A stretch of DNA of 63,884 nt, counting the filler, from Folioceros fuciformis (taxonomy: Eukaryota): assembly GCA_049999805.1 (NCBI GenBank). It is 7 parts of 7 records of this genome, joined end to end, with 100 filler letters (N's around TTAATTAATTAA, not from the genome) between each part and the next. Parts side by side here need not be neighbours in the genome. Positions count along the whole stretch, not along the records: positions 1 to 25,153 come from JBNGIO010001057.1; 6 more parts are not named here. One strand, written 5' to 3'. The notes under the pieces were generated by a model. It ran no database searches, was not told the origin of the DNA, and saw only the letters and a program-made list of their open reading frames with translations. A program made the position numbers and the translations under genes. Shown one piece after another: positions 2,762 through 60,997 of this stretch (the first letter of the stretch is position 1; each line of letters starts with the position of its first letter).

Positions 2762-5548
2762 TTAGGCAGGGAATGCAAGACGTTTCCGAATGCTAACGAC
2801 GTCGACTGCCTTGGATATCCTGTACAAACGGTCGCCTGTGAGAGATGTTTTCATAGATATCCAATCTGGGGCCAGCTCGAGGAGGAGTTGGAGCTTCTCT
2901 TCAACCTCCACGGAGTCCGACAAATCTCCACGTGATGACATGACCTTGGACAGTAAGACCTGGTGTGGCAAGACAGATCTACCCTGGAAGATCTGACGAA
3001 CAGTACTCAACAGTTTTGGCATGTCTGCCTTCATCTTATTCAGCTTCCTCAGGGCAAGCACACCTTCGTTCTGTTCTTCCAGAGCCCTGCGTTCTGCCTC
3101 CCGCACCGACTTCACAAGCCCTGCTGGGAGGCACTTGACGATTTCAGCATCTACCTTAGGGACTGGTTGGGATGTGCCTTCAGCCATCTTGCACTTACTC
3201 CTCCTCCTTTCCATGAGCTGAAGCTGTTGAGCACGTTCATCCACAGTCCCCTCATCTTGCACTTCGTCCTCCGATGTGGCATGCAGCTTTGTCGATGGTC
3301 TGGTGCAGGCCTCTGCACCTTCGTCATCCTGCACGAAAACCGGCCCAAGGTTTACTCTTGAGCGCTTCGGCGTTGCGAAATCCTTCGGTCGGGCAGGCAA
3401 CCCAGGTGCAGGGGAAGCCTCATGCGGTGCTCTCGGAGTAGCATCATCCTGCACCTCATCCGCCGCCGACAAATGAAACTTTTTCGATGGGGACTTGAAT
3501 GTGGTGCGGGCCTCTTTGCCTTCGGATTCCTGATCAAAAATCAGCCCAAGGTTCACCCTTGTGCGCTTGGGTGTTGTTGACTCTTTCGGCCGGGGAGCTA
3601 ACAGACCTGCCGGTGAGGAGAAGTCATTCTGTGCTCCCGGGATCGCCTCATAAATACGCAAGGGAGTACTACAAGACGGAGTTCCGAGAGGGACTCCAAG
3701 GCAGTCAGGAGTACCAACTAGGGAACAGGAAGGGCTGCCGAACGAGACACCAGGAAGGTAAGGAGACTCATCCAGACCATGGAAAATCCGGGACTTTGCA
3801 GGAGTTGCTGACTCGTCCACACACCTTCCAGAAGAGACTGCTCTTGGCAGCTGTGACTTCCCGGCATCGTCTTTACAGGCGGGATCGCAGTAGTCCTGAG
3901 ACCTGTTGAGATCAGTAACTGCTGAAGGAGCAGGTGTACCGAACCTCAGCTCCCTTACTGCAGTCTGCTGCCTGACAGGAGGTGTGGAAAACAGTGGCTT
4001 TGCAGAAGCCCGCACAGCAGATGGCTGTACAGGAGTCGAGGATGAGTTCCTTGCCACGTGCTGCTGACTGTAACCGACGAAGGGGGAGGGTTGGAAGGGA
4101 GTAGTAGGGAATGGGGAGGCACTGACCAGATCACGGGAAGCACTTGGGCACGGAGACATGTCAGCAGCAGTCTGGCATCTAGCTGAATCAGATGGCCTAA
4201 GGGAAAAGGGAGAAGATTTGGCTACATTAACTAGAGGAGTTTTCTCACAAACTGCACTAGGAGTCTGGGACAAATCAGGAAGAGATGGACACTCCGAGAA
4301 AGCATTAGACTCCAGAGACTGGACTGGCAGCTCGAGGTGTGAGACGTTGTCCGGATAGACACGGGGTTCTGTGGGAGAGGAAACTGCTTTCCTGACAGAA
4401 AAGAAAGGCTTAAACAAAGGTTGAAAATGTGAAACATGCACATTAAACTCTTCCGAAATGGACTCTGGAGCTGACTCAGGGAAGGTTGGGCAATTCACAG
4501 ACTCTGCCAGTGGCTCAGGAGGAGGGGAGGACAGTGTAGACTCTGTCTTCACAGAAAAGAAAGGGCGAAATAAGGGTCCAAAATGGGACATGTTAGGGCT
4601 GGGCATCTGCTCAACGTCTTCCTCCTCCTCCTCCCTTGCAGCAGACAGAACCTTACTCCCGGCACCATCATTTGCAACCGTGAACCCTGAGTCTTCGTCG
4701 TTTGACAGTCCATAATAGCTTATCTTGCCTGGCTGCGATGAGACCTCCGAAGACAAGGCCGGGGACTTGGGTGAGGAAGGACCCCGGGGAGCGCCATTCA
4801 ACTCACCCTCATCAGCAGCAGAATAGTGTTGTGGCAAAGCTGCCACCGGAATTTCCTCATCCCTGCCATGCTCTCTAAGGTGAGCCAAAAGTTTCGCTCT
4901 AAATTCTTCCTTTCTTGACACCTCCTTCGTCCTGTACTTCTCCTTCCCTGGACTTGCATCCACAGCACCTACTCCACGAGCCGACTCCACACCAATTGGC
5001 AGCAAACTCAGCTTCAGGTCCCTCATTGTCCTCTCAGTGTCCGGATCCTTATAAGACACGAGCTCCAAGCCCAACACCTCCGGAAAGACATACTTGATCT
5101 GGCCGAGGTGCTTCCGAGTGAACCTCCTCCCAGTCATCGTCTCCACAGTCTTGGCCACGGCGCTGAAGGTGCACATTTTCCGCCTGGTGCGAAGCAGTGA
5201 CGACGCAGCCTCCAAGCACTCGAAGTACTTCTCCAGGAGCAAGAAATCCGCAGGCAGGCTCTCACAAGCAGCCGCCTTCTTCTGCGGCGAGTTCTTCCTA
5301 GTCAACTCCTTCGCCTTCTCCACAATGCCCTGCCTCCTCTTCAACGCCTGCTTCCCAACGCTTTCCACCACCTGCTTCCGCAAGCTCTCGTGGAATTGAG
5401 CTGGCGTGATGGAGTTCTTCCTCACGCTCCAGAGCTGCGACAGTTTCCCCTTGCTCGACTGGGCCCCCTGCGGACCCTCCACACCAGGACTTCCATGCCC
5501 CCGCTGAGCTGGAGCAAGCGAAGCTTGCTCGATTCTCACCTCCTTCAT
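2762..5548 (-). CDS. CDT1: DNA replication licensing factor CDT1-like protein, single coding exon
   Basis: Open frame of about 930 aa. Geminin-binding-like N domain (LEKYFECLEAASSLLRTRRKMCTFSAVAKTVETMTGRRFTRKHLGQIKYVFPE), C-terminal winged helix (EVEEKLQLLLELAPDWIS) and a long S/P/T-rich linker with many SP/TP sites. First ATG is at 5548. Confidence 0.9.
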   Translation of the reverse strand: MKEVRIEQASLAPAQRGHGSPGVEGPQGAQSSKGKLSQLWSVRKNSITPAQFHESLRKQVVESVGKQALKRRQGIVEKAKELTRKNSPQKKAAACESLPADFLLLEKYFECLEAASSLLRTRRKMCTFSAVAKTVETMTGRRFTRKHLGQIKYVFPEVLGLELVSYKDPDTERTMRDLKLSLLPIGVESARGVGAVDASPGKEKYRTKEVSRKEEFRAKLLAHLREHGRDEEIPVAALPQHYSAADEGELNGAPRGPSSPKSPALSSEVSSQPGKISYYGLSNDEDSGFTVANDGAGSKVLSAAREEEEEDVEQMPSPNMSHFGPLFRPFFSVKTESTLSSPPPEPLAESVNCPTFPESAPESISEEFNVHVSHFQPLFKPFFSVRKAVSSPTEPRVYPDNVSHLELPVQSLESNAFSECPSLPDLSQTPSAVCEKTPLVNVAKSSPFSLRPSDSARCQTAADMSPCPSASRDLVSASPFPTTPFQPSPFVGYSQQHVARNSSSTPVQPSAVRASAKPLFSTPPVRQQTAVRELRFGTPAPSAVTDLNRSQDYCDPACKDDAGKSQLPRAVSSGRCVDESATPAKSRIFHGLDESPYLPGVSFGSPSCSLVGTPDCLGVPLGTPSCSTPLRIYEAIPGAQNDFSSPAGLLAPRPKESTTPKRTRVNLGLIFDQESEGKEARTTFKSPSKKFHLSAADEVQDDATPRAPHEASPAPGLPARPKDFATPKRSRVNLGPVFVQDDEGAEACTRPSTKLHATSEDEVQDEGTVDERAQQLQLMERRRSKCKMAEGTSQPVPKVDAEIVKCLPAGLVKSVREAERRALEEQNEGVLALRKLNKMKADMPKLLSTVRQIFQGRSVLPHQVLLSKVMSSRGDLSDSVEVEEKLQLLLELAPDWISMKTSLTGDRLYRISKAVDVVSIRKRLAFPA

Positions 5549-5782
5549 CTCGTCCAAGACAGGAGAATGCGGCAAGCATTCAAGAGCCCGTCCAAGGCTA
5601 GGGAAGCCCACTTTTCCTCACGGCCAGACATCCGCTCGTGCAGAAAGAACGCATGCTGCCAGGATCGACCGTGATGAGCCTACCCCCGCGCATCGATCAG
5701 CTCTGTGGTCCGCCATCGCCTGGGTCTCTCGTGTCCCAGGCGCCAGAAATGCACACCGCAAGCTGGCCAGGCGAGGCCGCGC

Positions 5783-5803
5783 TTTCCCGCCCGTCGTTCC
5801 CGC
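5783..5803. promoter_or_regulatory. Paired E2F-binding sites upstream of CDT1
   Basis: TTTCCCGC at 5783-5790 and GTTCCCGC at 5796-5803, about 240 bp upstream of the CDT1 ATG. CDT1 is a known E2F target class. Confidence 0.7.
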
Positions 5804-6117
5804 CTCACACGGGACCCGGGTTAACGTTAACTAGAGCTAGTCGACAACGGTTGGATTGCGCTATCATACATCACATCAAAGAATATGTACTCAAATAAAA
5901 CCAAACGCTCAGCGTCTCTACACTCGAAAACATGTTGTCGACCTTTGTAAATCGACTTCGGATTTGGGCCAAACTAAATTGATTCAATTCAACCCCATAT
6001 GCAGCCTAAGCTTCCTCTTCTCAAAACATGACAAATAATCTAGGACAAATATATTCATGTCCTTCCTAAATTACATACAAACATAAAAAGAAACACACAC
6101 AAAAAGATTTAATCATC

Positions 6118-6337
6118 CACGATCCACGAGATTAGTGAACTATTAACATCTTATTATTTCTGTCGCGGATGTCACAACCACCTCGATTTCTTATTTTCTC
6201 ATGATCTTTTGATGGGTGGATCATAATCACGATCCACGAGATTAGTGAACTATTAAGATCTTATTATTTCTGTCGCGGATGTCGCAACCACCTCGATTTC
6301 TTATGCTCTCGTGATCTTTTAGTGGGTGTATCATAAT
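6118..6337. repeat. Tandem duplication, 2 x 110 bp
   Basis: The unit CACGATCCACGAGATTAGTGAAC...TCATAAT occurs at 6118-6227 and 6228-6337 with few substitutions. Confidence 0.95.
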
Positions 6338-7914
6338 CCTCTTTACTCTGAGGCAACTCTTCAAGCTGGCCCAATAATCTCTGCCACAAATAATAACCAA
6401 ATCAGAAAAAAAATAAAAATCTATACAAAAACTCACTCCAATTCTTAAACCCATTTAACACACCTTAAAGCTTGCTGCGTCTATTGATACACATTTACAT
6501 CGACTAGTTGCTACAACAGTTGCTGCTCGTGGGCGATTATTAATAAGAGCCAATTCGCCGAAATAATCACCTCGTTTATATCGTTTTACAACGTTACCAT
6601 TAGAAACAGCTTCCGCTTGTCCCTGTTCAAATCACAACATAAACACAACAACAAAATTACCATCGCCAAATCGACTATTATTAAACACCACGATAATAAT
6701 ACCTCTTCGAGAAGGTAAAATCTTTCGCCGGGTTCACCTTCCACGATAATTTCGTCTCCTTTTTCAAAATACTCCGCTTCCAGAACATCCGCGATAGCTG
6801 CTTTTTCGTACTTATCTAAACTCTGTTTTTGATTCAAATTTACTAAATCACATGAATTTTATTTTTTTGAATATTAAAATTCAATCACCCTCTATCCATA
6901 CCTTCAATATATCCACTTCATCTAAGAACTTTTCATATAGCTCTCTTTTGGCATTTGTGGTATGCATAAGGATTGTACGGAATGTTGTCCTATCCATTGC
7001 CCATAACAAGCAAGGGGTAGTAGCCTATTTGTGGCACAGAAGAAACTATCTATATTAGGTCATACATTATTGTTATAATCAGATATATTTTTAAAGAAAA
7101 ATATACTCACTTACCTTCACTGTTGCTGCACGAGGAGCATTGTAAAGAAGAGCAAGTTCCCCAAAACTATCTCCAGCCTCATAAGTTTTAACTAACTGGG
7201 CAGCAGAATTAGGTCGAGCTATCCAAACTTCTGCATTGCCTGACTGTGTTCACACATATTTTAGGGGTCATTTATATTTATATATTATTATAAAAATCTT
7301 GTATTATCTCTTAAACCTACCTCCAATAAATAAAACTTGTCGCCAGGATCACCTTGTTTGATTATAATGTCACCAACAGCATGCTTTTCTTCCTCCACAG
7401 AGTCTACTACCTACATTCCATCCACTCCAAATATGATATTTTCAACAATAAATTATCAAAAAAATGTAAAATAACAAGGATTACCGTTTGTGTTTGTTCT
7501 TTATCCAAGGATTTGAAAATGTGGTTTCGGTGTAATGCATGTCGTATCCTTTCCTTTGCATCTTCACTTTTTGGGATAATCTAGGACCCATTGTCCAGTT
7601 CATTGAGCTTTGTGGTTTTTTTTTTTAATAAATGAAAATAAATAAAATCAAGACACGTACCTTAGCCACAAATTGGTTGCCTTGGCTAATGGCTTGGCAT
7701 TCAGCACTAACACCTCTCCTTCTTAAGGGTGTCTTTTGTTCCCCATTTGTCACAGCTACCTAATAGAGTACATTATTTTAAAATGAGTTAAACTTATGGC
7801 ATAATTTATTCTATATCTTTAGCAGCTAACAAATTAGTCCTATACAAAGTAATTATCTTTCTAAACCCTTACCTTAAAACATAACATTGTTGCAAGAGAA
7901 TTGAAAAAATGCAT
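6264..7914 (-). CDS. PKAR: cAMP-dependent protein kinase (PKA) regulatory subunit; exons 7661-7759, 7485-7580, 7321-7410, 7115-7243, 6902-7024, 6703-6822, 6464-6622, 6264-6380; probable first exon ends at 7873, start uncertain (7914 or 7977)
   Basis: Manual splicing at GT-AG sites gives 310 in-frame aa from the eight listed exons. It contains inhibitor site RRRGVSAE, linker IIPKSEDAKERIRHALHRNHIFKSLD, CNB-A cassette GDSFGELALLYNAPRAATVK, LWAMDRTTFR, SLDKYEKAAIADVL, CNB-B cassette GDYFGELALINNRPRAATVVA and SFKRLLG. Confidence 0.92.
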
Positions 7915-8961
7915 GATCTTTATTTGAGCACTTGTATATGTTGATAATGAACAATCAACACAACTTGAAAGCAACATTGAAAATCTTGAAGGTTGTGTGT
8001 ATTATTGTAACTTAAATAACAAAAAACTATTTTAATATATTATATAATCTAGAATGATTAATAGATATAGAATTAGGATTTTAGCAAATATTTGGAGATA
8101 AGAAGTCCCATCTTCTCAAAAAAGTAGAGAGGAAGCTCTATAAATGATCCCATGTTAAGAAACACTAATCCATGAATAAATAATTAAATTCAAATATATT
8201 AATTAATTAAATTATATATATTTCATGAGACTAGGTACCTAGGAGTTACTACTATACAAAGGTGAAGCTATTTTTTAATATAATATGATATAAGTTAAAA
8301 AAATAATATGATATGAGTTATTAGATGGTTTAGGGTACTTGATAAATGTGCTTTGAGGCTTTTAATAATTGCTGTGAATAGCTCTAGTTATTTGAGATAG
8401 CCATTTTTGGATACTTGATTATTTTAGATAGCATTATGACCTGCCTTGAAGTCTCATAACAAAACACTAAATAGATAAATAAATAAATAATACTAACATT
8501 TTATAATAATAGTAAAATATGCTAAAGCTTGGCTAAGGCAAATTTTAATTTTAACACCATGTTGTGAGCTTCCTTGTGAACTAAAGATAAAACCGAATAT
8601 GGGGTGTCTGTCTTCTAACACAGCCTTAGACCTTAGGTACTAATAACCTTTAGTCTCTGTCATGATAATAGCCGCACTGTGAAGCCATGGCTCCCATGTT
8701 TTGGAGTGAAGAGAAAACACCAGCAGTTTGGAATTTTCTAGTCCTTCGTTTGTTAGACGCGTCAGAGGATTTGAAGTATGTAATTACATGGCAAGACAGG
8801 AAATTGCAAGCTCCTAGTATACATAGGGGCTGGTGATGAAGCACAGAGATTGCATGATGCGGAATGCTCTCCCCACAGGAAGGTAGAGACCATAATTTGT
8901 CCAAGACTTCAGGAGAAATGACGCTCAACATAACGACTGCACACGCAGATTCACTCGTTTC

Positions 8962-9921
8962 TCAGAATTCATCCACTTCAACACCATCGCGAACTGTATC
9001 ATATGCGACTTTAGGCCTGCCCTTCCTCACGCCAATATGGAAATACACTTTGTCAGCTGGAGGATCATCCATTGAAACCATCGTCACCTTTATCCAGAAC
9101 AGCAGCTTCGTCTTCAGGCCCTCTATGTCACTGAATTTCCCTTTAGACAGTATTCCAGTCACTCTGGTATTGTATCTCACAATAGATCCATCCCGAAAAC
9201 CGACCTCAATGATTGCTGGTATGAAAACAGTTAACTTCCCTGTGGATTCATCAAATTCGTAGTTGGTGGCAGTGCGAGGGAAAAGACCCTTCGGGAGGTC
9301 AAAGCTTTGTAGCAACTCTGGCAAGGGTTTCTGAATTTTGCCTGCGATCACACACAACTTCTCAGCATCTTGCAATCCAAGAGCGAAGGGACCGTAGAGT
9401 CAACTACTGAAAGTGTTCCTGTCCTCAGCAGACAAAGAGCTGGCTGGAAAGCAGGACTGAACAGAGCCCAGAGTCATGTTTAATTGCTTTAGTCACAAAC
9501 GCTGTAAGAGCTGTCAAGATGACATCTACTACTACCAGGTGGCACTACACAGACCAGCCCTAGGGCTACTGAAGAGACACACACCTTTCATCCTGTTGAA
9601 AAAATTCTTTGCGCTGCTCTCCAAGTTTGTGGACATGGACTGAAACGCAATCCAAACAAATTCCATGATCTCTTAACACAGCGCAAGGACTCGTCAAATC
9701 GAACACGGCAAAGCTAACTGGTTGTGTCCGATCCTCAAGATCTAACCGTGCGGCAGAACTGGATCGGCATCAAAGCACATGCAACAAAAGGAGCGACATC
9801 CCACGGTCCAATCATCCAAGCTGCAAGTCCTTACGTTGATATCATTGGTGAAGGAGTCCATCTCCTTCTTGGCTCGATTTGCAAACAAGAAACTCCCAGC
9901 CTTTCCCAGCATGGCATCCAT
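8962..9921 (-). CDS. DUF538 family protein (At5g01610-like); exons 9835-9921, 9585-9639, 8962-9341
   Basis: The spliced product MDAMLGKAGSFLFANRAKKEMDSFTNDIN|SMSTNLESSAKNFFNRMK|GKIQKPLPELLQSFDLPKGLFPRTATNYEFDE...VDEF matches this plant family from end to end. Confidence 0.92.
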
Positions 9922-14781: not shown

Positions 14782-17700
14782 ATGAAGATGGATGTGACTG
14801 GGGCTGTTCCTGAGGTGTTCTCTGTGAGCTCATGTTGCAATGCAGCTGCTTCCATCAGCTCGAAGGAGGTGTCCGTTTTCGTGAGGCCTATAGTGGCTGG
14901 TTTGGAGTGGAGGCAGCGGAGGACTCCCTGGCTGACTGTAAATGCATCTCACAGACAGGGAGGCAGGCTGAGACTTGCAGCTTTCCCTCGCCAGAAGATG
15001 CGACAGGTGCAATGGCGGAGACGTGGGATGCACCGAACTGTGTTTGCCGCCGCCTCTCCCCTAGGCAAGAAAGAATTTGTAAGCGAGATTCCGCCGGAGG
15101 AAAACGATGTTTATGCACAGCAGACTTGGCATAGGGTGTCTCTGGAGAGGTGCTTCCATCCTTCTGCACAGTGTTTGATTTCAAAGGAATGTTGTTCAGT
15201 GCTTTTGTTTGTGGTTTCTGAGCAGAGTTTGATGTGCGTCTGTTGTTTTTCTCAAAGGATTCCTGTTGTTCTGGATGTGTGATTTTTTGGCAGTCCAGGT
15301 TTGAAGAGCCGCTGCTCTTGGGTCTGCCTGTGAGAGTGTTCGTTGATGAGGAGTTGAAGAGGATTGTCTCGGAGGATCGATTGGAGGAGGGTTTACTACT
15401 TTTGCACGAGAAAGGTGCGCAGGCCTCTATCAGTGTGTTTGCCCACCTGTTGCAGCTGTGTATCAAGTTGGCTGACGTGCGCAAGGGCAAGAAAGTGCAT
15501 GACGCCATCGTCAAGAGGGGCTTGGAAAACAATGACTACTTGATGAGCACTCTTGTCCGCATGTACGCCCAGGCTGGTTTGATGAGAGATGCTAACCTGG
15601 TATTTGAGAAGACAGTGAAGAAGAGTGCGTTTTGCTGGACTGCACTTGCTGAGGGTCATGCCAAGCTTGGACAGTTTGAGGAAGCTATAAAAGTGATTGA
15701 GAGAATGGACGCGGCGGATGTTGAGCCGAATAGTTACAGTTTTGTCACGGCGTTGAAAGCCTGTGTTGGGATGGGGGCCTGGGATCGAGGGCAGCAAATT
15801 TATGAGATGACGGTGGGCAATGAGCTAGAAACGGATGCGCACGTTGCGTCTGCTATCATTGATCTGTATGCCCGGTGTGGAAGGATGCAGCAAGCACAGG
15901 CGGTGTTCGACAAGGTTACTGAGCGGGATGTTGTGTTGTGGAGTACTCTGATAAGAGGATACATAGATCATGGGAACCCTAGGAAAGCTCTCAGCCTTTA
16001 TGATTCGATGATAGAAGCAAAGACAAATCCAGATGCCTACACCTTTTCTAGCCTCCTGAAAGCCTGTGCTATGTTACAGGATCTTGACCGTGGGGTCGAA
16101 ATCCATGAAAAAATAATATCCTGTGGCATGGCAGAAGATTCGTTTGTCGGTGGTGGACTTGTGGATATGTATGCCAAATGCGGGAGCTTGGAGAAAGCTC
16201 AACTAGTGTTTGACAATCTACCCAGCCAGAACGTGTTTGCTTTCACTGCGATGATCTTTGCATTGGCAGAAGAAGGTTTCCCTGAAGCAGGGCTGACTCT
16301 GTTCAAGGAGATGCACAAGAACGGCCCAAGGCCCAATGAGCTGGCATTCTGTAGTGCCATTAAGGCTTGTGCAGAACTTGGTAAGTTGCGAGAGGCCAGA
16401 CAGGTTCACTCATGGATCAGGGAGTGTGGGTTGTATGCAAGCTTAGTCCTCGCTTGTCCGCTCATTGACATGTTTGCGAAATGCGGCAGCCTGAGAGATG
16501 CATACAATGTTTTCAACAACATGACTGAAAAGAATATGATGTCCTGGAATGCGGTTAATGCCGCTTTTGCTGAGCTGACCGATCCTGAAGCAGAGCTGAA
16601 GAAGTTTGAGGAGTTGCGGCAAAAGGGTGGAGTGCCAGATAAGTTCTCCTGTTCAATCATCCTCAAAGCATGTGTCACTCTTGATGCAGATACCTATGGA
16701 AGGTGGATCTCTGAACACATACACAAGCAGGGGTACGATTCAGAGCTCTACATCAGCTGCACCCTTATAGAAATGTTCTGCAAGTTTGGTGACCTGAAAG
16801 CCGCACTTCCTGTTTTTGAGAAATGGCGTGATGGACATGTAGCCATTTGGAATTCAATGATTGCTGGGTATGCACAACTGGATCAGGTGGAGGATGTTAT
16901 TAACCTGTTTGATCAGATGCAAGTCAATGGTTTTAAACCAGACACGATGACCATGATGGCTGCCCTTAAAGCGTGTTCAAGCGCACAAGATTTGGAGAAA
17001 GGCAAGAAGATCCAGAAATATGTCGCAGAGCATCCTTCTTTGATGGATTCTTACGTTGGTAATGCCATTTTGGATGTGTATGTCAAGTGCGGGGCCATGG
17101 AGGAGGCGAAAGAAGTTTTTAACAGCCTTGGCCAGAGGACTGTTGTATCTTGGACAACCATGATCTCGGGACATGTGAAGGATGATAACCCTGAGATGGC
17201 ACTGAAACTGTTTGACGAGATGCAAGCGGCTGGCATTCGTCCGGATGAAGCTACGTTCGTGAACGTTATCAAAGCTTGCACCCAGTTGTCACTCCTGGAG
17301 AAAGGCAAAATAGTGCACGCCGAAATACGGGAACGCAACTTTGAGTCGAATATAGCTGTGGGCAGCACCCTCATTGACATGTATGGAAAGTGTGGGAGCA
17401 TAGAGGATGCCCAGACTGTATTTGATTTGTTGCCTGAGCGAGACGTGGTGGCTTGGACCGCATTGATCTCAGGCTATGCACATCAAGGTCAGTTAGAGGA
17501 TTCTCTGATATTGTTTGCGAGGATGGAGCAGGAAGGAGTGACGCCAAATGAGGTCACGTTTACTACCATCCTCTCAGCCTGCAGCCATGTAGGGGAAGTT
17601 GACAAGGGCTTCCACTATTTCAAGCAGATGATGGAAGTATATCGTCTGCAGCCGACGGTGCAGCACTACGCCTGCCTGGTCGACGCCCTGGGCCGTGGGG

Positions 17701-18494
17701 GCCATATTGTGGAGGCTTTGAACCTGATCAAGAGCATGCCCCTTGACCCTGGTCTCCCTATTTGGATGAGCCTGCTTGCTGCTTGCAGGAAACACTCAAA
17801 TGTGGAGATCGGGACCCTTGCATACGAGAACATCCTCAAGATAGACGCAACAAATCCGTCTCCTTACCTCTTGATGGCGAATATATATGCCTCGGCTGGG
17901 AGATTGGATGACTCTGCTAGGGTTACGAAGGAGATGGAGGATGTGGCAGCGAAGAAGGAGCCAGGCTCCTCCTGGATTGAGTACGCGGGACATGTGCAGT
18001 CATTTGTTGCTGGAGGGATGACATATCCGGACTGTGAGTGGATATATGATTCGTTAGACGAACTGAGTAGCCAATTGGAGGGAGGGAGAAAACTCGAATC
18101 CGGCGGTGCAAAGAGCGGAGACGTGAATCCTGTGCAAGTTGAGGCGGAGAGTCGGGAACCAGACGATTCGCAAAGTGATGAAGAAGCAAACGATGCGGAA
18201 GGGGAGGTAGCAAATTCGGGAAGGGAGGTAGAATCAGATGATGCGGCTGTGGAGGTAGAAGCTCTTCAGAAAGAAGGGAAAGCGGACATCGTTGAATCAA
18301 CCAGCTCCGAAGAGGAGACCAGTGACACCAAGGTAGGTGATAAAGAGACGCCGGTAGAAAGAGTTGAATCGGACGAGTTGCAATTGAACAACGTGCAGCT
18401 AGAGGTAGGAAGTATTGACTTAGAGCGTCCACGAGTGAAGATTGAGAACCTAGACTCAGCCTCGGAATTGCAGATAGAAAGCATTGCGATCTAA
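14782..18494 (+). CDS. PLS-class PPR protein, E+ type with acidic C-terminal tail; exons 14782-15149 and 15299-18494
   Basis: Repeated P-L-S motifs (VDMYAKCGSLEKAQLVFD), P2-L2-S2, E1/E2 and PG box KKEPGSSWIE, with no HxE/CxxC deaminase. Exon 1 is Arg-rich and transit-peptide-like. A phase-2 GT-AG intron restores the frame. Confidence 0.92.
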
Positions 18495-25153: not shown

Positions 25154-25253
25154 NNNNNNNNNNNNNNNNNNNNNNNNNNNNNNNNNNNNNNNNNNNNTTA
25201 ATTAATTAANNNNNNNNNNNNNNNNNNNNNNNNNNNNNNNNNNNNNNNNNNNN
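25154..25253. other. Artificial contig spacer N44-TTAATTAATTAA-N44
   Basis: Exactly 100 nt with a central linker giving stops in all six frames. Confidence 0.97.
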
Positions 25254-35281: not shown

Positions 35282-35381
35282 NNNNNNNNNNNNNNNNNNN
35301 NNNNNNNNNNNNNNNNNNNNNNNNNTTAATTAATTAANNNNNNNNNNNNNNNNNNNNNNNNNNNNNNNNNNNNNNNNNNNN
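35282..35381. other. Artificial contig spacer
   Basis: N44-TTAATTAATTAA-N44. Confidence 0.97.
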
Positions 35382-46026: not shown

Positions 46027-46912
46027 TTAGGCATGGCGAGGAGGTTCTGAGCCGTCCTGGTGGAAGTGGGGCACGGGATGGGGCTGAGGATGAGGCTGGG
46101 GCTGCAGACTTCCACCGCGGGAGGGTGCAAATAGAGTGGCGGATACATAAGTGGCATGTGGTACCGGTGTGGACTGAAGGGGGCCCATGGAGGAGCAGAC
46201 AGGAGACTCATGGAGGGGTCTCGTTGGCTGCGCGTCCAGGCAAGGGATGGAGGAGTCCCAAAGACAGTGGGCGCCAACAGGAGCAGCAGAGGCCGAGGCG
46301 GCTACAGATGACTTCGCCGCTGCTAAGCCCTCCACCACCGACTGCTGCGGCTGCTGCTGCTGCTGCCGCTCTTGGCGCACAACAAGGCCTAGGGTCGTGG
46401 AGCAGAATGCGGAAGGCAAGACTGGTGTTACGCCTCCCAGGGGACCACCTGGCATCAGCAAGCAAGCGAGCGCGTTGGCGTGAATCGAAAAAATGGATGA
46501 AACCAACAAGGGCAGAGCAGAGAGATGCAGGGCTGCGTGCCTGACAGCTGCCTCGTCCGGACGACCGGAGCCTTCAGGCTGTGACCACTGTTGTGGTAAA
46601 GCGCATCAGACGGGAAGGTCACGCCACAGTCGCCGTTGGTCTGGGAACCGGAATCGGAGGTTGAGACTGAGGCTGAGAAGGAGGCAGATGCGCCTTGTTG
46701 TTCCCGATCCCTATCCCGATCGCGAGCTTCCTTCTCCCTGGCGCGCTCCCTCGCTCTCTCCCTGGCTTTCAATCTCGATTCCGTCCTCACATCTATCGTT
46801 GCGGTGGCCGCCGCAGCTGCTGCTGGATCTGTTTTGGGGGAATGAAAAGGCGGCTGCGAGGCAGTTGGAGCGGGAACGGACGCGGATTGCGAAGGGGGAG
46901 CAGTAGCAGACG
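46027..46912 (-). CDS. 3' part of a class II (CIN-like) TCP transcription factor; TCP domain lies beyond the spacer; probable intron about 46449-46540
   Basis: R domain RTESRLKARERARERAREKE, Q- and A-rich tracts, and the GPLQS motif that encodes the miR319 site in CIN-type TCPs. The intron donor is uncertain and may be GC. Confidence 0.72.
46169..46189 (-). promoter_or_regulatory. miR319-type target site in the TCP coding sequence
   Basis: The plus strand reads GTGGACTGAAGGGGGCCCATG against miR319 UUGGACUGAAGGGAGCUCCCU. Positions 2-13 would pair perfectly with the minus-strand mRNA. Confidence 0.65.
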
Positions 46913-47012
46913 NNNNNNNNNNNNNNNNNNNNNNNNNNNNNNNNNNNNNNNNNNNNTTAATTAATTAANNNNNNNNNNNNNNNNNNNNNNNNNNNNNNNN
47001 NNNNNNNNNNNN
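46913..47012. other. Artificial contig spacer
   Basis: N44-TTAATTAATTAA-N44. Confidence 0.97.
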
Positions 47013-47044
47013 ATGTAATGTTATCATTATTATTATTATTATTA

Positions 47045-47686
47045 TTATTTATATTTAAATGTCCATGGAACTCGTTCGGGTGGGGGTATTATGTCACAAT
47101 ATCGAACAAAGCAATCTGTAGAATATACAAAACCTCGCACTTTGTTTTTGCAAACCACTCTTAAGAGCTCCTCAGTCAAGACACCAATGCAATACCTGCA
47201 GTGCTCTTGTGTTCTCATGGTATCTGAGTACTTGCATCCAGATCGAGCAAACACTCGTTTGTCTATATTAGCGTTAAACGGCATGTAACGTTGTACATTC
47301 GAGTTGTTAATAAATCTAGTGTGTGTTTCATGTACTACAACAGACATAAGACGCTCCAACAAGACGTGATATATCCCTCCAGGTTCATAATCATCCGTAC
47401 TACACCATTTCCTACTGATACCTGTGTCAGGAACATTTGGAAAACTGTCATCAGATTCGTCGTGTATAAAACCGTCGTTGCCTCTTGGTAATATGGTATC
47501 CAATCTTGGGTATAAGGGGTCCAATGCAGACTCTGCTGATCCTAACCATGAGTAAGCTGACTGCCAAGGTTCACAATAAGAGCAAGAACTTTCTTCGGAT
47601 TCTATCTGCTGAGCTATGGTGAGAATGTGTGAACAAACATTAGCTATGATGTACAGAAATACTATTTGTGATAGTTTGGTTCTCAT
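47045..47686 (-). CDS. Secreted protein with a single divergent DUF26 (Gnk2-homologous) domain
   Basis: Signal peptide MRTKLSQIVFLYIIANVCSHILTIA, then WCSTDDY, VFARSGCKYSDTMRTQEHCRYC and VCKNKVRGFVYSTDCFVRY. Intronless and AT-rich. Confidence 0.72.
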   Translation of the reverse strand: MRTKLSQIVFLYIIANVCSHILTIAQQIESEESSCSYCEPWQSAYSWLGSAESALDPLYPRLDTILPRGNDGFIHDESDDSFPNVPDTGISRKWCSTDDYEPGGIYHVLLERLMSVVVHETHTRFINNSNVQRYMPFNANIDKRVFARSGCKYSDTMRTQEHCRYCIGVLTEELLRVVCKNKVRGFVYSTDCFVRYCDIIPPPERVPWTFKYK

Positions 47687-50019
47687 TGTTTCCTCTTGTG
47701 GGTGATTAAATGAAAGTGCACATTTCTCTAGAGCAGAGACATGAGTAATGGGTCTCAAAATCTGTAGCTTGTTACCTCAAATGAAGTCTAATTCACACAT
47801 GGTGAGGCTTGTTGTCTCACAATTCATTCACATGAAACAAAGTGGGCTCTTACACAAAATTCGTCAAGTAGAGTCGAGTGCTCCCAAGGTTAGGAGGGCC
47901 AACATATCCATCTCTTTTTAAGCTTGTTTCCTATTGATGCGTAAGAACTTGAATGTAATCCAACATTAGCTTCACTCCATATTGATAAAATATGTAATGC
48001 AAAGTTTGGAAAGTCATGCTCTTATACTTTTTAATTCTTGATGGAAGTTGCTGTAGTTTTAAAATCTACATCGAGGTTTGTGCCAAGTTGATCAACCATA
48101 GTTTGTCAACCAGAAATATAACAATTAGGAAATTTTTTGCCATTTGATGAACACCTTAATATCATTGCATATTCTATTCTAATAGTTTTAAAATAATTTT
48201 ATGTAGGTGATCAATGCATAAAGTTGCTTTTGTTCTTTTGACTATCGGTGTTATGGGCACAAAGATCGAGGTGAAGAGATGCTTTGATGGCAATCGTGTG
48301 AGGTGAAGCTAGATCTTGTTTTAAGTGGAAAATGGAGTTGATTTTGGCTGTTGTGTGACCTTTGTTTGCCTTATCGAGGGCAAGCTACTTGCCCATGTTG
48401 AGGAGGAGTTCTAAGTAGTGTTGCCTTTGAAGTAGCTATTGTCTTTATATGAGATTGTTGAATGAGAGCACTTGCAACGAAGATTGAACAAGCTCCTTGC
48501 TAGGAGACAAAGGAAGCAGATAAACTACATCACTTCTTCTTTGAATGATTCTTCAAACCTAATGGGCAATTGGCTTCGACCCATTTGTCATTGTTTATAT
48601 GAAGCTACATGAGACTTTGGAAAAGCGCAATGCTTTCAAAGTTTTGTGAGTGTTTTCTCCATGCTTCTTTTTTTGCTAGTGGGACTTCCCAAGGAGAGAT
48701 TTGGATTTCAAACTTATGCTTTGAACAATACTCTTGAGCTCGCACACCTTCAGGCCATCACCTTGTGTCTACATCCTGACAATCAAGTATTCTAAGGTTG
48801 CAAGCCTCCGATTCTCAAATGCATCAGTCTTCTTGAATTTGAATACAACTAGATCATGTGTGAAATGTTGGATATCAAGTGAAGTCAAATTTATCACCAA
48901 TAAGCCAATCAATCTTCAATCAATCCATGGGTTGATACTGATGAGAGCTTCGATGAGCTTTTGTACTGCACTGCCAGTGTAAAGTATGATCTGTTTGATT
49001 TACACTTAGAGCATGCTCCACAGGGTTTTTTTTCACTTACCCTAAATTAGATTGTCATTGCCCTAAATCTTGTCCAACACATAATCCCAAGTCTTGATTC
49101 GAAGTCACCTACTCGATTCGCGAAGTGTTAGGTAGGTACACCACCACGGAATGGATGACGAGATGGGGACCGGCCTTCCGTGGGTGGAAAAAATATGGCG
49201 AGTCCTGCTCGCCTTGCGCTGGTCCCAGTTTGCCCTGTGTGACGCTCCTCACAAAGTTGGCCCGATGGGAGCGAGGTCCCGGGCCCTGTTCTCTTGTCCG
49301 TACGTGAGTGCAGTACGTTTGAAATAAAACCGGGAAATGGAAAGGTCAAGTGGTGCCGCGGAAGAAAATTAATCTCCACCGTGCGATGAACCCGCGCGGG
49401 GAGCCTGGCGCCGTGGGATTGAGCCGATCCGGCGGTCCAGGAGTGCCCGGCTGGATCCTTTGAAACGCAGTAGGAGAGGCTCGCCTCAAGAACATGGCGG
49501 ACGCGAGACAGGCGGAGAATCGTGACGGCGGTCTGCGGAATTTCTGTCCTCGGACTCGGGATCTAATGGAGGAATTGGAAGAGCTGCTTGACGGAGAATT
49601 GGAAGGAAAGGAGGCGGTCACGCAAATTCGGTAGCTGATGGCAGTGGGGGGAAATGCGGGAGGCAACAGTGAGCTTCGGCCTCGGAGCGAAGGACTCGTG
49701 CAACGTCCTGTACTAGAGGAGGAGGCAGGGAGATCGGGAAGCATGGAGAGAGGCTATGGGAGCAGCAGCAGTCTGTGAGCATCTGCTGCTTCTGCGCACA
49801 GGCAGCTTGTGGTGATCAGCGGGGTAGGTGGTTTGCAATTCAGCTCCACCAGAATGGAGGCTCAGAACGATCCGACAAGCTTTTCTCCCGGTCAAGGTTT
49901 GCTTCATCTCCTACCTAGCTTAAGGGAAGGGAGATGGGACGAGTGCTGGTCGCGTTGAGAATTGTTCATGTCTCGTGGCAGGGCATCGACAGTGGTTTGA
50001 CATCAAGGGAGGCGGCGAC

Positions 50020-53034: not shown

Positions 53035-53134
53035 NNNNNNNNNNNNNNNNNNNNNNNNNNNNNNNNNNNNNNNNNNNNTTAATTAATTAANNNNNNNNNN
53101 NNNNNNNNNNNNNNNNNNNNNNNNNNNNNNNNNN
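53035..53134. other. Artificial contig spacer
   Basis: N44-TTAATTAATTAA-N44. Confidence 0.97.
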
Positions 53135-54868: not shown

Positions 54869-57800
54869 ATGAGGAAAGGTGGCAAAGTTGGGGGCCATTC
54901 GATTGTTGGAAATAGGTCCAGTCATCTAAGCAGAGCAGGGGAGAGATGGTGGAGATACTTGTCGTCCTTGCGGGCTGCAGCGGAACCGTGCACAGTAGTG
55001 GAGTTGACTTCCACTAGTCGTGACTCAGCTCATGAATTTGGGAAGGGGGCATTGTGGATTGAGTCCCAACTCGCGTGGGTTCAAGGAAAGCTTCTAACCG
55101 CACGAAGTGCCGGTGTTGCCCTAGCTCGGAATCGTCCTGTCCTCCATACAGCAAGTCAACATGAGCAGTTGGAGAGGTAGATTTCTTTCCCCTGTTCCTC
55201 AAGCTCTCTCTGGACGTGCAGAAATGTGTGATGACACTCGCCTGGCCTTGCCTGTCCAGAATGTGGAGTCCGTCACAAGTCGGGACTTGGAGCAAGTTAT
55301 CCGAAGAGGGGCAGCTCAATGACGCTGTGGAGGCCTTACATGTTCTCGTGGGGCAAGGATCGTATGTACCTGATGCAGCTTTCTACCGTTTGCTCAAAGG
55401 CTGCATCCTGGAGAAGAATCTCACTGTTGGCAAACGTGTTCATGCTCTTACTGTCGACAGTGGCTATGAGTGCACGACGTTCTTGGCTAACCACTTCATC
55501 CGCATGTATGCTTCCCATGTCAGGCTGGAGGACGCCATGGCAGTGTTCTCCAAACTGGCCACACCCAACGTCTTCTCCTGGTTTTACGTCATATCGGCAC
55601 ATGTCGAGCATGGACAGCCAGGGAATGCCGTACGACTGTATCAACAGATGCGACGGTCTTCTGTGACGCCTAACAATCATGTATTTGTTGCAGCCCTGAG
55701 GGCATGTGCAACTACTGCCGACTTGGAATCTGGGAAGCAGGTCCATGCTGATGTGCTGGGGAGTAAGGTCAAGCCTGACTTGTTTGTTGGCAATTCTTTG
55801 GTGGACATGTATGCAAAATGTGGGAGCTTGGAGGATGCCATCCAAGTATTTGACAGTTTGAAGGCCAAAACTGTCGTGACGTGGACTTCCATGATTGCGG
55901 GCTACGTGGAACATGGGCGTTGTAGAGAAGCTCTTTCTTTGTATGCCCGTATGCAACAAGAGGACAGCATGTTAGCAAATCATGTCACATTTTCGTGCCT
56001 CCTGAAAGCATGTGCGAACACTGGAGCTTTGCTTGAAGGAAAAGAACTTCATACTCAGATTCAGGAACGAGGACTCGAAGCAGATGTTGTGATTGGGAGC
56101 AGCTTGGTTGACATGTATGTTAAATGTGGAAGTGTTGACGATGCAAGGAAGGTGTTTGACAGGTTGCACACCAAGGATATTGTGACGTGGACTGCAATGA
56201 TTGGAGGCTATGTCCAGTGTGGGCTTGGTCCGGAAGCTTTGAACCTCTATACAAGCATGCAGCAGAAGGGCCTTGCTGTAGCTAACAGTTTTACATTTGC
56301 ATCTCTCTTGAAGGCATGCGTCAGCATAGGGGATCTACATCAAGGGAAAGAGCTTCATCTTGAGATTTGTAAAAGCGGGCTGGAAGATGATGTGGTTGTG
56401 GGCCGGAGCCTAGTGGGCATGTATGCCAAGTGCGGCAGCTTAAATGATGCCCGGTACATGTTTGAAAGACTACCAGCACGAGACGCAGCCACATGGACTG
56501 CCATGATTGCAGGGTGCGCTCAACGGGGACTCGCTCAAGAAGCCTTTTCCCTGTTTGCGAGTATGCAACGTGAGGGATTGGGTCCAGCTAGTAGTGGCAC
56601 GTTTGCATGCCTTCTGAAAGTATGTGCCAGCAGTGGTGCCCTACGTGAAGGGAAGGAACTCCATCGTCAGATTCAGGCACAGGGCCTGGAGACGGATCTA
56701 GTTGTTGGCAGCTCTCTGGTAGACATGTACGCCAAATGTGGGAGCCTCAAAGATGCACGTGATGTGTTTGACAGAATGCCTGCAAGAAATGCGATGACCT
56801 GGAATGCTATTTTAGCAGGATATGCTCAGAACGGCCTTGGGCAAGAAGCCCTCACTGCTTTTGCTGATGGGGAGCAGGAGGCAAGTGAGTTAGCTGATCA
56901 TGTTACGTTGGCAATACTCCTCAGAGCCTGTGCTAGTTTGGGAGCTCTACAGCACGGTAAGGAGCTGCATCTGAAGGTCAAAGAGAGAGGGTTTGAACTG
57001 GACATGGCAGTAGGCACTGCCCTGGTGGACATGTATGCAAAATGTGGTAGTATAGAGGATGCTCGAAGCGTATTTGACAGTTTACCTGCCAAGGATGTTG
57101 TAGCATGGAATGCTATGATGACAGGGTATGTTCAACATGGGCTTCGTCAAGAGGCTCTCACCCTGTTTGCAGGTATGCCACCAGGCATAAGTCCTAATGG
57201 GGTTACATTTATGTGCCTCTTGAAAGCGTGTGCTGGTATTGGTGACATACGTGCAGGCAAGGATCTTCATCTGCAGATCGAGACACATGGGCTGGAAGCT
57301 GACATCGCTGTGAGCAATGGCCTGGTCGACATGTATGCAAAATGTGGTAGTTTAGAGGATGCTCGTAGAGTGTTCGAAAGGATGCAGGCAAGAGATGGCG
57401 TGACATGGAATTCTTTGATCGCAGGGTATGCACAGCAAGGGCTCGGCAGAGAAGCTCTTAGTCTTTACAGACGGATGCAATCCGAGGCCATTACGTTAGC
57501 TGATAGTTTTACGTATGTTTGCCTCCTGAATGCATGCGCTCGCATGGGCGACTTACAGGAGGGTAGGGAGCTGCATCTTCAGCTGCAAGAAAGGGGGCTA
57601 GAAGCTGACGTGGTGGTTGGTAGCAGTGTGGTGGACATGTATGCAAAATGTGGTAGCTTAGAAGATGCTCGCAGAGTGTTTGACAGACTGCCTGCCAGAG
57701 ACTTGGTGACGTGGAATACCATGATCGCGGGATATGTTCAGCAAGGGCTTGGTCAAGAAGCTCTGACTCTTTATGCACGCATGGAGATGGAGGGTATAAG

Positions 57801-58923
57801 ACCTTCTGACGCTGTGACATTCGTGTGTCTCCTGAAAGCCTGTGCTAGTGTAGGAGCTTTACATCAGGGGAAGGAGCTTCATTTACAGATACAGGAAAGA
57901 GGGCTGGAAGCCGATGAGTTTGTTGGCAGCAGCCTAGTGGACATGTATGCCAAATGTGCCACTGTTGAGGATGCCCGCAAGGTATTCGACCGTCTCCCTA
58001 CAAAGAACGTGGTAACATGGACGACTCTACTTAATGGTTATGCTGAACATAACGACGGCAGAATGGGGATCCAGTGTTTCCACGAAATGGAGCAGCATGG
58101 CATCAAGCCTGATGGTGCTGCTTTCCTTTCCCTTCTTGTTGCATGCAGTCACGCTGGACTGGTGGATGAGGGTCAGCAGTATTTTGGCCGCATGGTGCAG
58201 GAACATGGGATCACACCTGGGATTCATCACTACGCTTGCATGGTTGACATTCTTGGGCGAGCAGGGCGTCTTGATGACGCAGAGAAGTTGTTGTACTCAA
58301 TGCCCTTCGAGAAGGACGTGGTGGGGTGGAGAGCCTTGTTGAATGCCTGCAAAAGCCATGGAGATACCAAGCGTGGTGCACGATGCTTTGATCATCTTAT
58401 AAAACTGGAGCCTGAAAACGCAGCAGCGTATGTGCTACTTGGAAATCTGTATGCAGATGCAGGCATGTGGAAGGACGTGGAGAGGGTAGAGAACCTGAGG
58501 AAGAGTTCAGGTGCATTCAAGAAGGCTGCAAGGGCCTGGATTGAGGTGAACAGTCAGGTTCACACATTCGTTGTGGGAGAAGACAGGGACGACACTGCCG
58601 TCAAGCTAAGCAGCTTGAATAGTATGTTGAAGGATGATGGGGGCCATGTGCCACACACGCATTTGGTGCGAAAACGAGTTTCTGAAAGAGAGAAGGAAGA
58701 CGCGTTATGTGGACATGCTGAGAAGCTGGCTTTGGCATATGGGCTGCTGAACACCACTCAAGGAACACCGTTGCTAGTCACCAAAAATCTTCGCATGTGC
58801 AATGATTGCCATAGTGGTACCAAAGTCCTGTCGCGGATAGAAAAACGGGAGATTATAGTCAGAGATGCCCATCGTGTTCACCAATTTGTGAACGGCTTTT
58901 GTTCTTGCGGAGATGGCTTCTGA
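54869..58923 (+). CDS. PLS-class PPR protein with variant DYW:KP (GRP-like) deaminase domain; exons 54869-55176 and 55260-58923
   Basis: About 29 PPR motifs with 36-aa P variants, E1/E2, then KKAARAWIEV...GGHVP...EKEDALCGHAEKLALAYGLLNT...LLVTKNLRMCNDCH...CSCGDGF*. An 83-nt phase-2 intron joins a targeting-like first exon. Confidence 0.93.
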
Positions 58924-58993: not shown

Positions 58994-59093
58994 NNNNNNN
59001 NNNNNNNNNNNNNNNNNNNNNNNNNNNNNNNNNNNNNTTAATTAATTAANNNNNNNNNNNNNNNNNNNNNNNNNNNNNNNNNNNNNNNNNNNN
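58994..59093. other. Artificial contig spacer
   Basis: N44-TTAATTAATTAA-N44. Confidence 0.97.
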
Positions 59094-60745
59094 ATTTGGA
59101 GTCGATTGCCCTGCGGCCCGGTGGGAGCTCTTCAAGTATCCAGGTTTTGTTTTCCACGAGGGAAGCATATTCTTCGTTTGCAGCTTTGATCCATTTGTCC
59201 TTCTCTGGACTGTTCATGGCCTCATCCCAATTGAGCGTCCCTGAGACTTCTGATGCTGCTATAGCAATTTGTGCTAAATGTCCCGGATCAGTCTTCATTG
59301 TGGAGTCACTGTCCTGATGAGAGCTAAGAGCCGACACAGTTGCGATTGCAGTACTTGGTTCATTATTGTTCCAATAATCTGAAGGACTAAACGGGGGCTG
59401 TACCCATTCTTGCCTGTTTCTAGTGTGGTGTCTGGAAGACCTCCTTAGAGGAGGTAATTCGAGTTCAGGTACTTTGGACTTCTAATCAGTAGGTGTAGCA
59501 TCAGTGACATCATCATCAGGTGAATCTTTGTGGTTAGTTTGTTGAGCTGAATAATCTCTTTGATTCATAAACTCAGTAGTCTCAGAATCCATGTCAATTT
59601 TGGGGGGTGCGGCTGATGGTATAGTCGCAGATGGTGTATTGACAGTGGGTGAAACTGTCGTAGGTACTGTAGTGGTCGTTGAAGCGGCAATTGAAGATTG
59701 TACTCCCTCTGAGTTTGAAAGAGGTAAGATGTCTGTAGATAGTGACTGCAATAATTCTCCCCTAGGCTCGTGCACATCAGCAGGTTCAAAATGTACATAG
59801 GTTGATTCCGTAGACTGAGCCTAATGGGGCTGAAGTACTACGGCTTCGTTGACAAGCACGCTACGTGCGAACCGAGGGGTGTGTGTGGTAGGATGTAGCA
59901 ACTTGTAAGCCTTCATGACTTCCATGTATCTAACAAGTAAATACTGCTTAGATCTAGCGTCAAACTTTGAACGCAAAGCGGATGGGACATACACATAGCT
60001 GGGTGACCCGAACACACAAATGTGTGCTAAGGAAGGCTTAAGGCCAGTCCATAAGGTAAATGGAATCTGACCACCGATAGCCACAGAGGGTAACCGATTG
60101 AGAATGTAATTGGCTATATCAATTGCCTCTGCCCAGTAGTGTTTGCTTAAACCAGCCTGCAGTAGCATTGTGTGTGCGTAATACTGTAGGACTTGATGTT
60201 TATTTTCAGCCACCCCGTTCATGGTAGAGGAGTGTGGAATTGTAACCTGTTTGACGATACCACGCTCTGAGCAGAATGCAACGAATGTGTTGGAGTTTAA
60301 TTCGCCAGCGCCCTCTGTGCGTAACTGTTTGAGTGAACGCTCTGTTTGTCTTTTTGCCATTGACAGATACTCTTGAAAAATCTGAAGCGCTTGGCTTTTC
60401 TTTTGTAGAAAGTAAGTGAAGGTCATTCGCGAGTAGTCATCAACAAATGGCATAAAATAGATGGAGCCTTCGAAGGAAGGTGTCGAGATAGGTCCGCATA
60501 GATCTGTGTGTACAAGATCTAGCGGCGCTGAGGCTCTATATGAAGACATCTTAGAATAAGGTGTTTGCTTAATTTTGCCTTTTGCACAAGCATCACATAA
60601 CGCAATATCTGTCAAGGTGGGCATCTTATGCCGGTAGAGGTTCTTGTTGGACAGTTCAGCAAGTCGTTTATTGCTCACGTGGCCAAGCCTGGCATGCCAG
60701 AGCACGGAGGGGTCTACGAGACCCTGACTTGCTTGTGAAGTGACT
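59094..60745 (-). mobile_element. Ty1/copia retrotransposon pol fragment (GAG-pre-integrase, integrase, start of RT), inactivated
   Basis: LWHARLGH...CDAC, LVHTDLCGP, FVDDYSR, NGVAE, WAEAI, then WDEAM...EYASLVENKTWIL...AIDSKW. One frame with in-frame TAG stops at 59821 and 59482. Confidence 0.95.
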
Positions 60746-60776
60746 AGGGTTTAAACCCTAAACCCTAAACCCTAAA
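60745..60776. repeat. Short interstitial telomere-type repeat with inverted junction
   Basis: TAGGGTTT followed immediately by (AAACCCT)3AAA. Confidence 0.8.
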
Positions 60777-60897: not shown

Positions 60898-60997
60898 NNN
60901 NNNNNNNNNNNNNNNNNNNNNNNNNNNNNNNNNNNNNNNNNTTAATTAATTAANNNNNNNNNNNNNNNNNNNNNNNNNNNNNNNNNNNNNNNNNNNN
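60898..60997. other. Artificial contig spacer
   Basis: N44-TTAATTAATTAA-N44. Confidence 0.97.

Follow-up and report, generated by a model that had tools for sequence, protein, structure and literature searches.

We analysed a 63,884-nucleotide (nt) stretch of the hornwort Folioceros fuciformis genome (assembly GCA_049999805.1), referred to here as the window. It joins seven parts of seven records, and all positions are counted along its full length. A gene for a regulatory subunit of protein kinase A (PKA), or PKA-R, occupies the minus strand at 7914-6264. It has nine exons, with borders set at GT..AG sites, that comprise 324 codons and a stop. Scans for open reading frames (ORFs) mostly missed this gene, for which a clean nine-exon model is now given. 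Our analysis indicates that it is quite probably a native, intact and vertically inherited PKA-R gene of the streptophyte type.

The exon model was built by reading the minus strand from 6100 to 8300 together with its stop-to-stop ORFs. Exon 1 (7873-7914) supplies 14 codons, MHFFNSLATMLCFK, starting from the ATG at 7914. Ten of its 14 residues are identical to those of P0007, the nearest relative of the product, and the junction that follows is free of gaps. Exon 2 (7661-7759) carries the pseudosubstrate RRRGVSAE at 7723-7700; the same site in P0007 aligns with RRGGVSAE of the RI-beta structure 4din_B. The linker and the N-terminal helices of the first cyclic nucleotide-binding domain (CNB-A) are encoded by exon 3 (7485-7580), which is collinear with P0007 and ends at the donor acg/gtaatc after 7485. 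Exon 4 (7321-7410) begins the beta barrel of CNB-A, exon 5 (7115-7243) contains phosphate-binding cassette A, FGELALLYNAPRAATV, at 7165-7118, and exon 6 (6902-7024), also collinear with P0007, forms the B and C helices of this domain. Exon 7 (6703-6822) contains SLDKYE, whose Tyr is encoded at 6810-6808, and begins CNB-B. Exon 8 (6464-6622) contains phosphate-binding cassette B, FGELALINNRPRAATV, at 6562-6515. The C-terminal helix, with the Tyr of SKEDY (codon 6335-6333), is encoded by exon 9 (6264-6380), which also specifies a basic tail and closes with the stop codon (6266-6264).

The eight introns are all in phase 0 and have GT..AG borders. They measure 74-113 nt each and 676 nt in sum, and their GC content is 0.26. 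Introns 4 (7320/7321) and 7 (6702/6703) occupy corresponding positions in the two CNB domains, offset by one codon, where they follow FYLLE and FYLLEE, respectively. The initial annotation had described eight GT-AG exons encoding 310 amino acids; these correspond to exons 2 to 9 (7759-6264, 310 codons), to which exon 1 is now added upstream. All of the motifs that it listed, from the pseudosubstrate through the two cassettes and SLDKYE to SKEDY, are present in the minus strand. When exons were scanned singly with Pfam, exon 5 (29.8 bits) and exon 8 (45.5 bits) each exceeded the gathering score of cNMP_binding (PF00027), 27.5 bits. Exons 4 (17.9 bits, E 0.0031) and 7 (17.9 bits) gave weak matches to this family, and no match to it was found in three of the seven exons scanned.

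Over its full length, from initial Met to final residue, the spliced product aligns with P0007, and 237 of 326 positions are identical (E 2e-175). The alignment contains three one-residue gaps, every one of which is within an exon and none at an exon junction. P0007 is a 351-residue protein encoded by an uninterrupted ORF on a 3,594-nt contig. Since this ORF is collinear with the nine-exon model, it is most simply derived from a spliced mRNA of a relative. Exon 1 and the basic C-terminal tail (..WLRHPRQK) are both conserved in P0007, and the two proteins have the N-terminal motif M-x-F-x-N-S-x-A-x-MLCFK in common. An in-frame ATG at 7977-7975 is an alternative start that adds 21 residues, and the frame is open from 8001. 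P0007 likewise has an in-frame upstream extension, in which only LSSC is common to the upstream frame of the PKA-R gene.

Exon 8 was used as a query against 5.8 billion proteins, which gave 450 matches among 615 candidates. Across the whole exon, P0007 is 77% identical, followed by Adiantum (74-75%), Ceratopteris, Riccia and Ceratodon (68%), Marchantia and Selaginella (66%) and Chara (60%). The named sequences with the highest whole-exon identities are thus from ferns, liverworts, a moss, a lycophyte and Chara, and no seed plant is found among the 120 exon 8 matches listed. The protein database contains neither the gene's own product nor that of the neighboring DUF538 gene, the best identities being 77% and 76%, respectively. 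For DUF538, the next named relatives after the closest one are conifers, at 64% or less, and the identities of PKA-R follow a comparable pattern.

Phylogenetic analysis placed the product among plant PKA-Rs. A quick tree of 52 rows recovered the streptophyte set as a single clade, with a support of 99 in the Shimodaira-Hasegawa-like approximate likelihood ratio test (SH-aLRT), P0007 and P0009 being counted as streptophyte by assumption. A careful maximum-likelihood tree was calculated from 33 rows; the remaining 19 of the 52, including four with long branches, were left out, and its groups were defined by named rows only. In this tree the product pairs with P0007 (100/100) in a land-plant clade (97/93), which joins with Chara (98/96), and six fungal sequences are placed apart (100/99). 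The terminal branch of the product is 0.091, compared to 0.30 for P0007. The land-plant clade contains the Marchantia protein P0016, which indicates orthology to the Marchantia PKA-R genes. Both trees group the product with known PKA-Rs, and not with PKG or other proteins that bind cyclic nucleotides. The check proposed with the initial annotation, a protein search and phylogeny, has therefore put the product inside the land-plant PKA-R clade, with Chara as sister and away from fungi.

The motifs in the product are those of a PKA-R. The inhibitor site RRRGV at 7723-7709 precedes CNB-A, as in PKA-R pseudosubstrates. Two tandem cNMP-binding domains follow, both with FGELAL...PRAATV cassettes in which the Glu, the Arg and then an Ala are present, the arrangement of a PKA-R. 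The Ala after the cassette Arg is a mark of selectivity for cyclic AMP (cAMP) over cyclic GMP (cGMP). Comparison with solved structures was made through P0007. Its best match is RI-beta 4din_B (E 2.2e-62), followed by Plasmodium 5kbf_A (E 1.2e-60) and RI-alpha 2qcs_B (E 6.7e-60). RI types score 206-214 bits, RII types 171-181 bits and mammalian PKG I (PRKG1) 138-146 bits; apicomplexan PKG, at 181-188 bits, is close to the RII types.

The RRRGV of P0007 aligns with RRGGV of RI-beta, and the gene product is collinear with P0007 at this site. The phosphorylation site is Gly, as in RI-beta, and therefore cannot be phosphorylated, which supports the earlier assignment of a type-I-like pseudosubstrate. 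Through the same collinear protein, the Tyr of SLDKYE is aligned with the LEKWER Trp of RI-beta, which we take to be the capping position W260 of RI-alpha. The placement of a Tyr at the RI-type capping Trp, proposed in the initial annotation, is thereby upheld. Again through P0007, the C-terminal Tyr is matched to a Tyr in 5kbf_A, the Plasmodium PKA-R, with a gap of one residue ahead of it.

The dimerization/docking domain RIIa (PF02197) was found in none of eight streptophyte PKA-Rs at E values up to 1, and both fungal controls, from yeast and a chytrid, were positive. The prasinophyte protein P0045 gave a sub-threshold Dpy-30 match. A docking-domain exon hidden upstream was considered and dropped, because no RIIa match was found in 10 minus-strand ORF fragments of 7861-8639. 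The gene was thus correctly described as having no such domain. Because RIIa is absent across the plant clade, its absence is a trait of this clade and gives no ground to exclude the gene from the PKA-Rs. A docking-free clade established against positive controls raises the question of how these R subunits are localized without docking to A-kinase anchoring proteins (AKAPs).

The whole gene is located in a low-GC island at 5850-8600, between the transcription units of CDT1 and DUF538. The GC content of the island is 0.327, compared to 0.55 in the left flank and 0.48 in the right flank. The nine 1-kb windows with the lowest GC content in the 64 kb (starts 6001-8001) are all inside it. The presumed promoter and 5' region on the minus strand (7915-8544) has a GC content of 0.22-0.29 in 200-nt windows and extends up to the start of the neighbor's X3 contig at 8545. 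Only one CpG is present in 7915-8600. The GC content at first and second codon positions (GC12) is 0.46 in the PKA-R gene, on par with other genes, and the ratio of observed to expected CpG is 0.73 in the gene and 0.57-0.60 in the flanks. The AT bias is limited to third codon positions and non-coding DNA.

Two causes of the AT-richness were considered and rejected. Decay of methylated CpG is not consistent with a CpG ratio that is higher in the gene than in its flanks. AT pressure on the protein is not consistent with its composition, because the shares of FYMINK and GARP residues are equal to those of its relatives. A second low-GC island is found in the window at 46900-49100, where it begins at a run of N and has a GC content of 0.27-0.42. 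Its presence shows that such islands are a trait of the genome. A 243-residue minus-strand ORF in the second island (47048-47776) has a sub-threshold match to Stress-antifung/DUF26 and a GC content at third codon positions (GC3) of 0.35.

Short-read contigs bridge both GC edges of the island that holds the PKA-R gene. X1 contributes contigs at 5312-6297 and 7410-9585, and X2 a contig at 8163-9600. At the 3' end of the gene, a tandem duplication of 110 nt (6118-6337) consists of the copies 6118-6227 and 6228-6337, which are 93% identical. The duplicated unit comprises the final 74 nt of the PKA-R coding sequence and the first 36 nt of its 3' flank. Contigs of both X1 and X2 are interrupted within this duplication. 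Their ends near 7398-7439, 6784 and 6297 carry 23-39 unrelated GC-rich letters; in a check of these ends for Hi-C ligation, a GANTC site was found beside 7398 only (at 7400).

X3, a run from another study, was taken as RNA because its DUF538 contig skips 9344-9586. The jump from 9343 to 9587 implies a 243-nt intron in the 5' part of the DUF538 gene, with a GC content of 0.49 compared to 0.26 in the PKA-R introns. An X4 contig at 5941-6796 differs from the window at 63 letters, 56 of which are G>A. Such differences, almost only of one kind, suggest data of the bisulfite type. The 40 G>A changes listed include none in the CG context, three in CHG and 37 in CHH. In 5981-6470, conversion is seen at 0 of 12 CG, three of nine CHG and all 37 CHH positions, which leaves 18 unconverted positions, 12 CG and 6 CHG. 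One contig of one run thus gives a hint of CG and CHG methylation over the 3' part of the gene and the downstream repeat. In Anthoceros agrestis, CHH methylation is reported to be nearly absent, CG and CHG methylation marks transposons together with a cluster of genes that are not expressed, and 9.3% of such methylated genes are turned on in another life stage (PMC10952607). The X4 pattern agrees with the pattern described there.

The product would act as a conventional inhibitor of the kinase. Its pseudosubstrate, laid in the active-site cleft, would keep the PKA catalytic subunit (PKA-C) inactive. cAMP produced by CAPE would fill site B and then site A, thereby freeing the kinase. Without a docking domain, the subunit probably forms an R:C heterodimer and not R2C2. 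The process controlled in this way may be flagellar beating in spermatozoids, as in Marchantia. The initial annotation had proposed membership in a cAMP pathway of flagellated sperm. Its orthology component stands, given the clade with the Marchantia PKA-R (97/93); the sperm role may be assigned through orthology only. The gene is probably silent in the vegetative thallus, a proposal that fits the lack of X3 coverage, the AT-richness of synonymous and non-coding positions and the signature of CG/CHG methylation. The presence of the gene also fits the view that the CAPE-PKA module accompanies motile sperm.

Several observations weigh against a native, intact and functional gene or weaken the support for it. 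The start codon, at 7914 or 7977, is uncertain. Among 12 coding regions of the window, the PKA-R gene has the lowest GC3, 0.32, and the other regions have values of 0.35-0.74. The helix before the C-terminal Tyr is one residue shorter than in other streptophyte sequences, as it is in P0007. X1 and X2 possibly come from the assembly's own sample, and the bridging contigs are then not independent support. X3 contigs are found on CDT1 (5000-5600) and DUF538 (8545-9343) and none over 5616-8541, which is not evidence of silence. Finally, the unconverted CG/CHG state marks transposons and non-expressed genes in A. agrestis (PMC10952607), so that a silenced relic is conceivable.

Several of these features can be combined with an intact gene in one tentative scheme, which we consider possible and on balance rather doubtful. 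The PKA-R gene would occupy a compositional and epigenetic compartment of its own, AT-rich and CG/CHG-methylated without CHH methylation throughout the transcription unit, promoter and 3' end included. This would be the heterochromatin state described for non-expressed genes of the hornwort A. agrestis (PMC10952607). The gene would be kept closed by facultative heterochromatin in the thallus and opened again in antheridia only. Prolonged silence in germ-line-carrying cells might have pushed synonymous and non-coding sites to AT, with the protein still constrained. The monomeric, docking-free R subunit might be targeted through the short conserved N-terminal motif, which contains a Cys and is common with P0007. 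The AT-rich, apparently CG/CHG-methylated island raises the question of germline-specific gene silencing in this genome.

We consider it improbable that this gene is a relic, silenced and turning into a pseudogene, still open and unused in heterochromatin-like DNA. The low GC content of the island (0.327) and of third codon positions, the lack of conversion at CG and most CHG positions against full conversion of CHH in 5981-6470, and the recent 110-nt duplication at the 3' end could all be seen in such a relic. The nine exons are, however, open and the eight introns canonical, and all motifs for docking to the catalytic site and for binding cAMP are intact. The terminal branch of the product is shorter than that of P0007, AT enrichment affects only third codon positions and non-coding DNA, and the CpG ratio of the gene is not below that of its flanks. 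Methylation is also compatible with use, since 9.3% of methylated A. agrestis genes are active in another life stage (PMC10952607).

A native gene might also encode a PKA-R-like sensor that works without cAMP or PKA-C, with another ligand or another partner. Kinetoplastid PKA-Rs bind a ligand other than cAMP, and the N-terminus of the product is unusual, being short, Cys-containing and free of a docking domain. We consider such a sensor very unlikely, given that Glu, Arg and the following Ala are kept in both cassettes and that the pseudosubstrate RRRGV is intact. A partner kinase is also available in a relative, since Marchantia is reported to have a PKA-C homologue beside two PKA-Rs (PMC11032487).

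A foreign origin, by fungal or protist contamination, chimeric assembly or recent horizontal transfer, would explain the drop in GC content from about 0.55-0.60 to 0.22-0.40 near 5850 and its rise near 8600, the short AT-rich introns and a codon usage that differs from that of neighboring genes, but it is largely refuted and has almost no likelihood left, because the product nests among land plants and not fungi or alveolates in both trees, its 73% identity to the nearest relative is similar to the 76% of the native DUF538, the X1 and X2 contigs cross both island edges, and a second AT-rich island with GC3 of 0.35 is found at 46.9-49.1 kb in the same window. The tree placement and the contigs thus support the position of the initial annotation against a contaminant contig, and they also speak against a chimera. 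We therefore retain the native, vertically inherited PKA-R gene as the preferred explanation.

The surroundings of the gene are plainly those of land-plant nuclear DNA. CDT1 (ORF 2762-5617, Pfam CDT1 and CDT1_C), PKA-R and DUF538 (8962-9399, Pfam) are all on the minus strand, and no run of N is found among them. The earlier statement that they are contiguous with no spacer is incorrect. The CDT1 ORF is separated from the PKA-R stop codon by 646 nt (5618-6263), and the ATG at 7914 from the DUF538 ORF by 1,047 nt (7915-8961). The remaining window contains PPR, Psb28, PITH and BRO1 domains, a kinase fragment and a retrotransposon integrase. Two long intronless ORFs on the plus strand, at 15222-18491 and 55165-58920, belong to the PLS class of PPR proteins; one has an E motif and the other an E motif and a DYW deaminase domain. 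In the integrase fragment (59824-60750, minus strand), the domains gag_pre-integrs, rve and SH3_retrovirus were identified. These contents, like the methylation signature, are consistent with a hornwort. N runs of 44 bases form six pairs, with 12 bases between the members of each pair, at 25154-25253, 35282-35381, 46913-47012, 53035-53134, 58994-59093 and 60898-60997; they may be masked stretches or gaps of a set length.

The initial annotation overstated the novelty of the gene. Plant PKA-Rs are already reported to form one clade (PMC11032487), and CAPE is reported from every streptophyte with motile sperm, A. agrestis included (PMC8115329). Marchantia has two PKA-R genes and one PKA-C gene with antheridial expression, and double knockout of MpPKAR1 and MpPKAR2 impairs sperm motility (PMC11032487). 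Our literature search found no paper on a hornwort PKA-R itself; PMC11032487 lists the hornwort genome database in its methods as one source of sequences, and the gene identifiers of its PKA-R tree (Table S2) could name one. Since the plant PKA-R clade and its role in Marchantia sperm are already published, the gene is largely expected, as one more member.

Mammalian RI-beta (4din_B) and RI-alpha (2qcs_B) are the best solved relatives of P0007, and both cassettes are conserved between them and the plant protein. RRGGV of RI-beta has a Gly at the phosphorylation site and is non-phosphorylatable, as is the site here. Unlike mammalian RI, the plant protein lacks the docking domain, the RI-beta alignment shown spanning chain residues 83-364 only, and a Tyr replaces the capping Trp of LEKWER. 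The Plasmodium PKA-R 5kbf_A likewise has no docking domain, and its C-terminal Tyr aligns with that of the plant protein. In Cryptosporidium PKA-R matches, PF00027 is the only precomputed Pfam domain listed. Apicomplexan PKA-R is anchored to membranes through N-terminal acylation, and it forms a separate clade in our trees.

Another close known system is that of Marchantia. MpPKAR1 and MpPKAR2 have the same short N-terminus, inhibitor site, two CNB domains and lack of RIIa, the Marchantia PKA-R is located in the same clade of the trees, and a Tyr is likewise found in its LDKYE motif. In exon 8, however, identity to the Marchantia protein reaches only 66%, and the N-terminus is shorter here, with 26 residues before RRR (47 from the start at 7977). 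The basic tail ..WLRHPRQK is common only with P0007 among the 21 sequences listed. The published picture is unchanged, and the mildly unusual points are limited to the docking-free architecture and to the island, which is AT-rich and apparently methylated. The gene adds one more lineage of non-seed plants with the PKA-R of the CAPE-PKA sperm-motility module.

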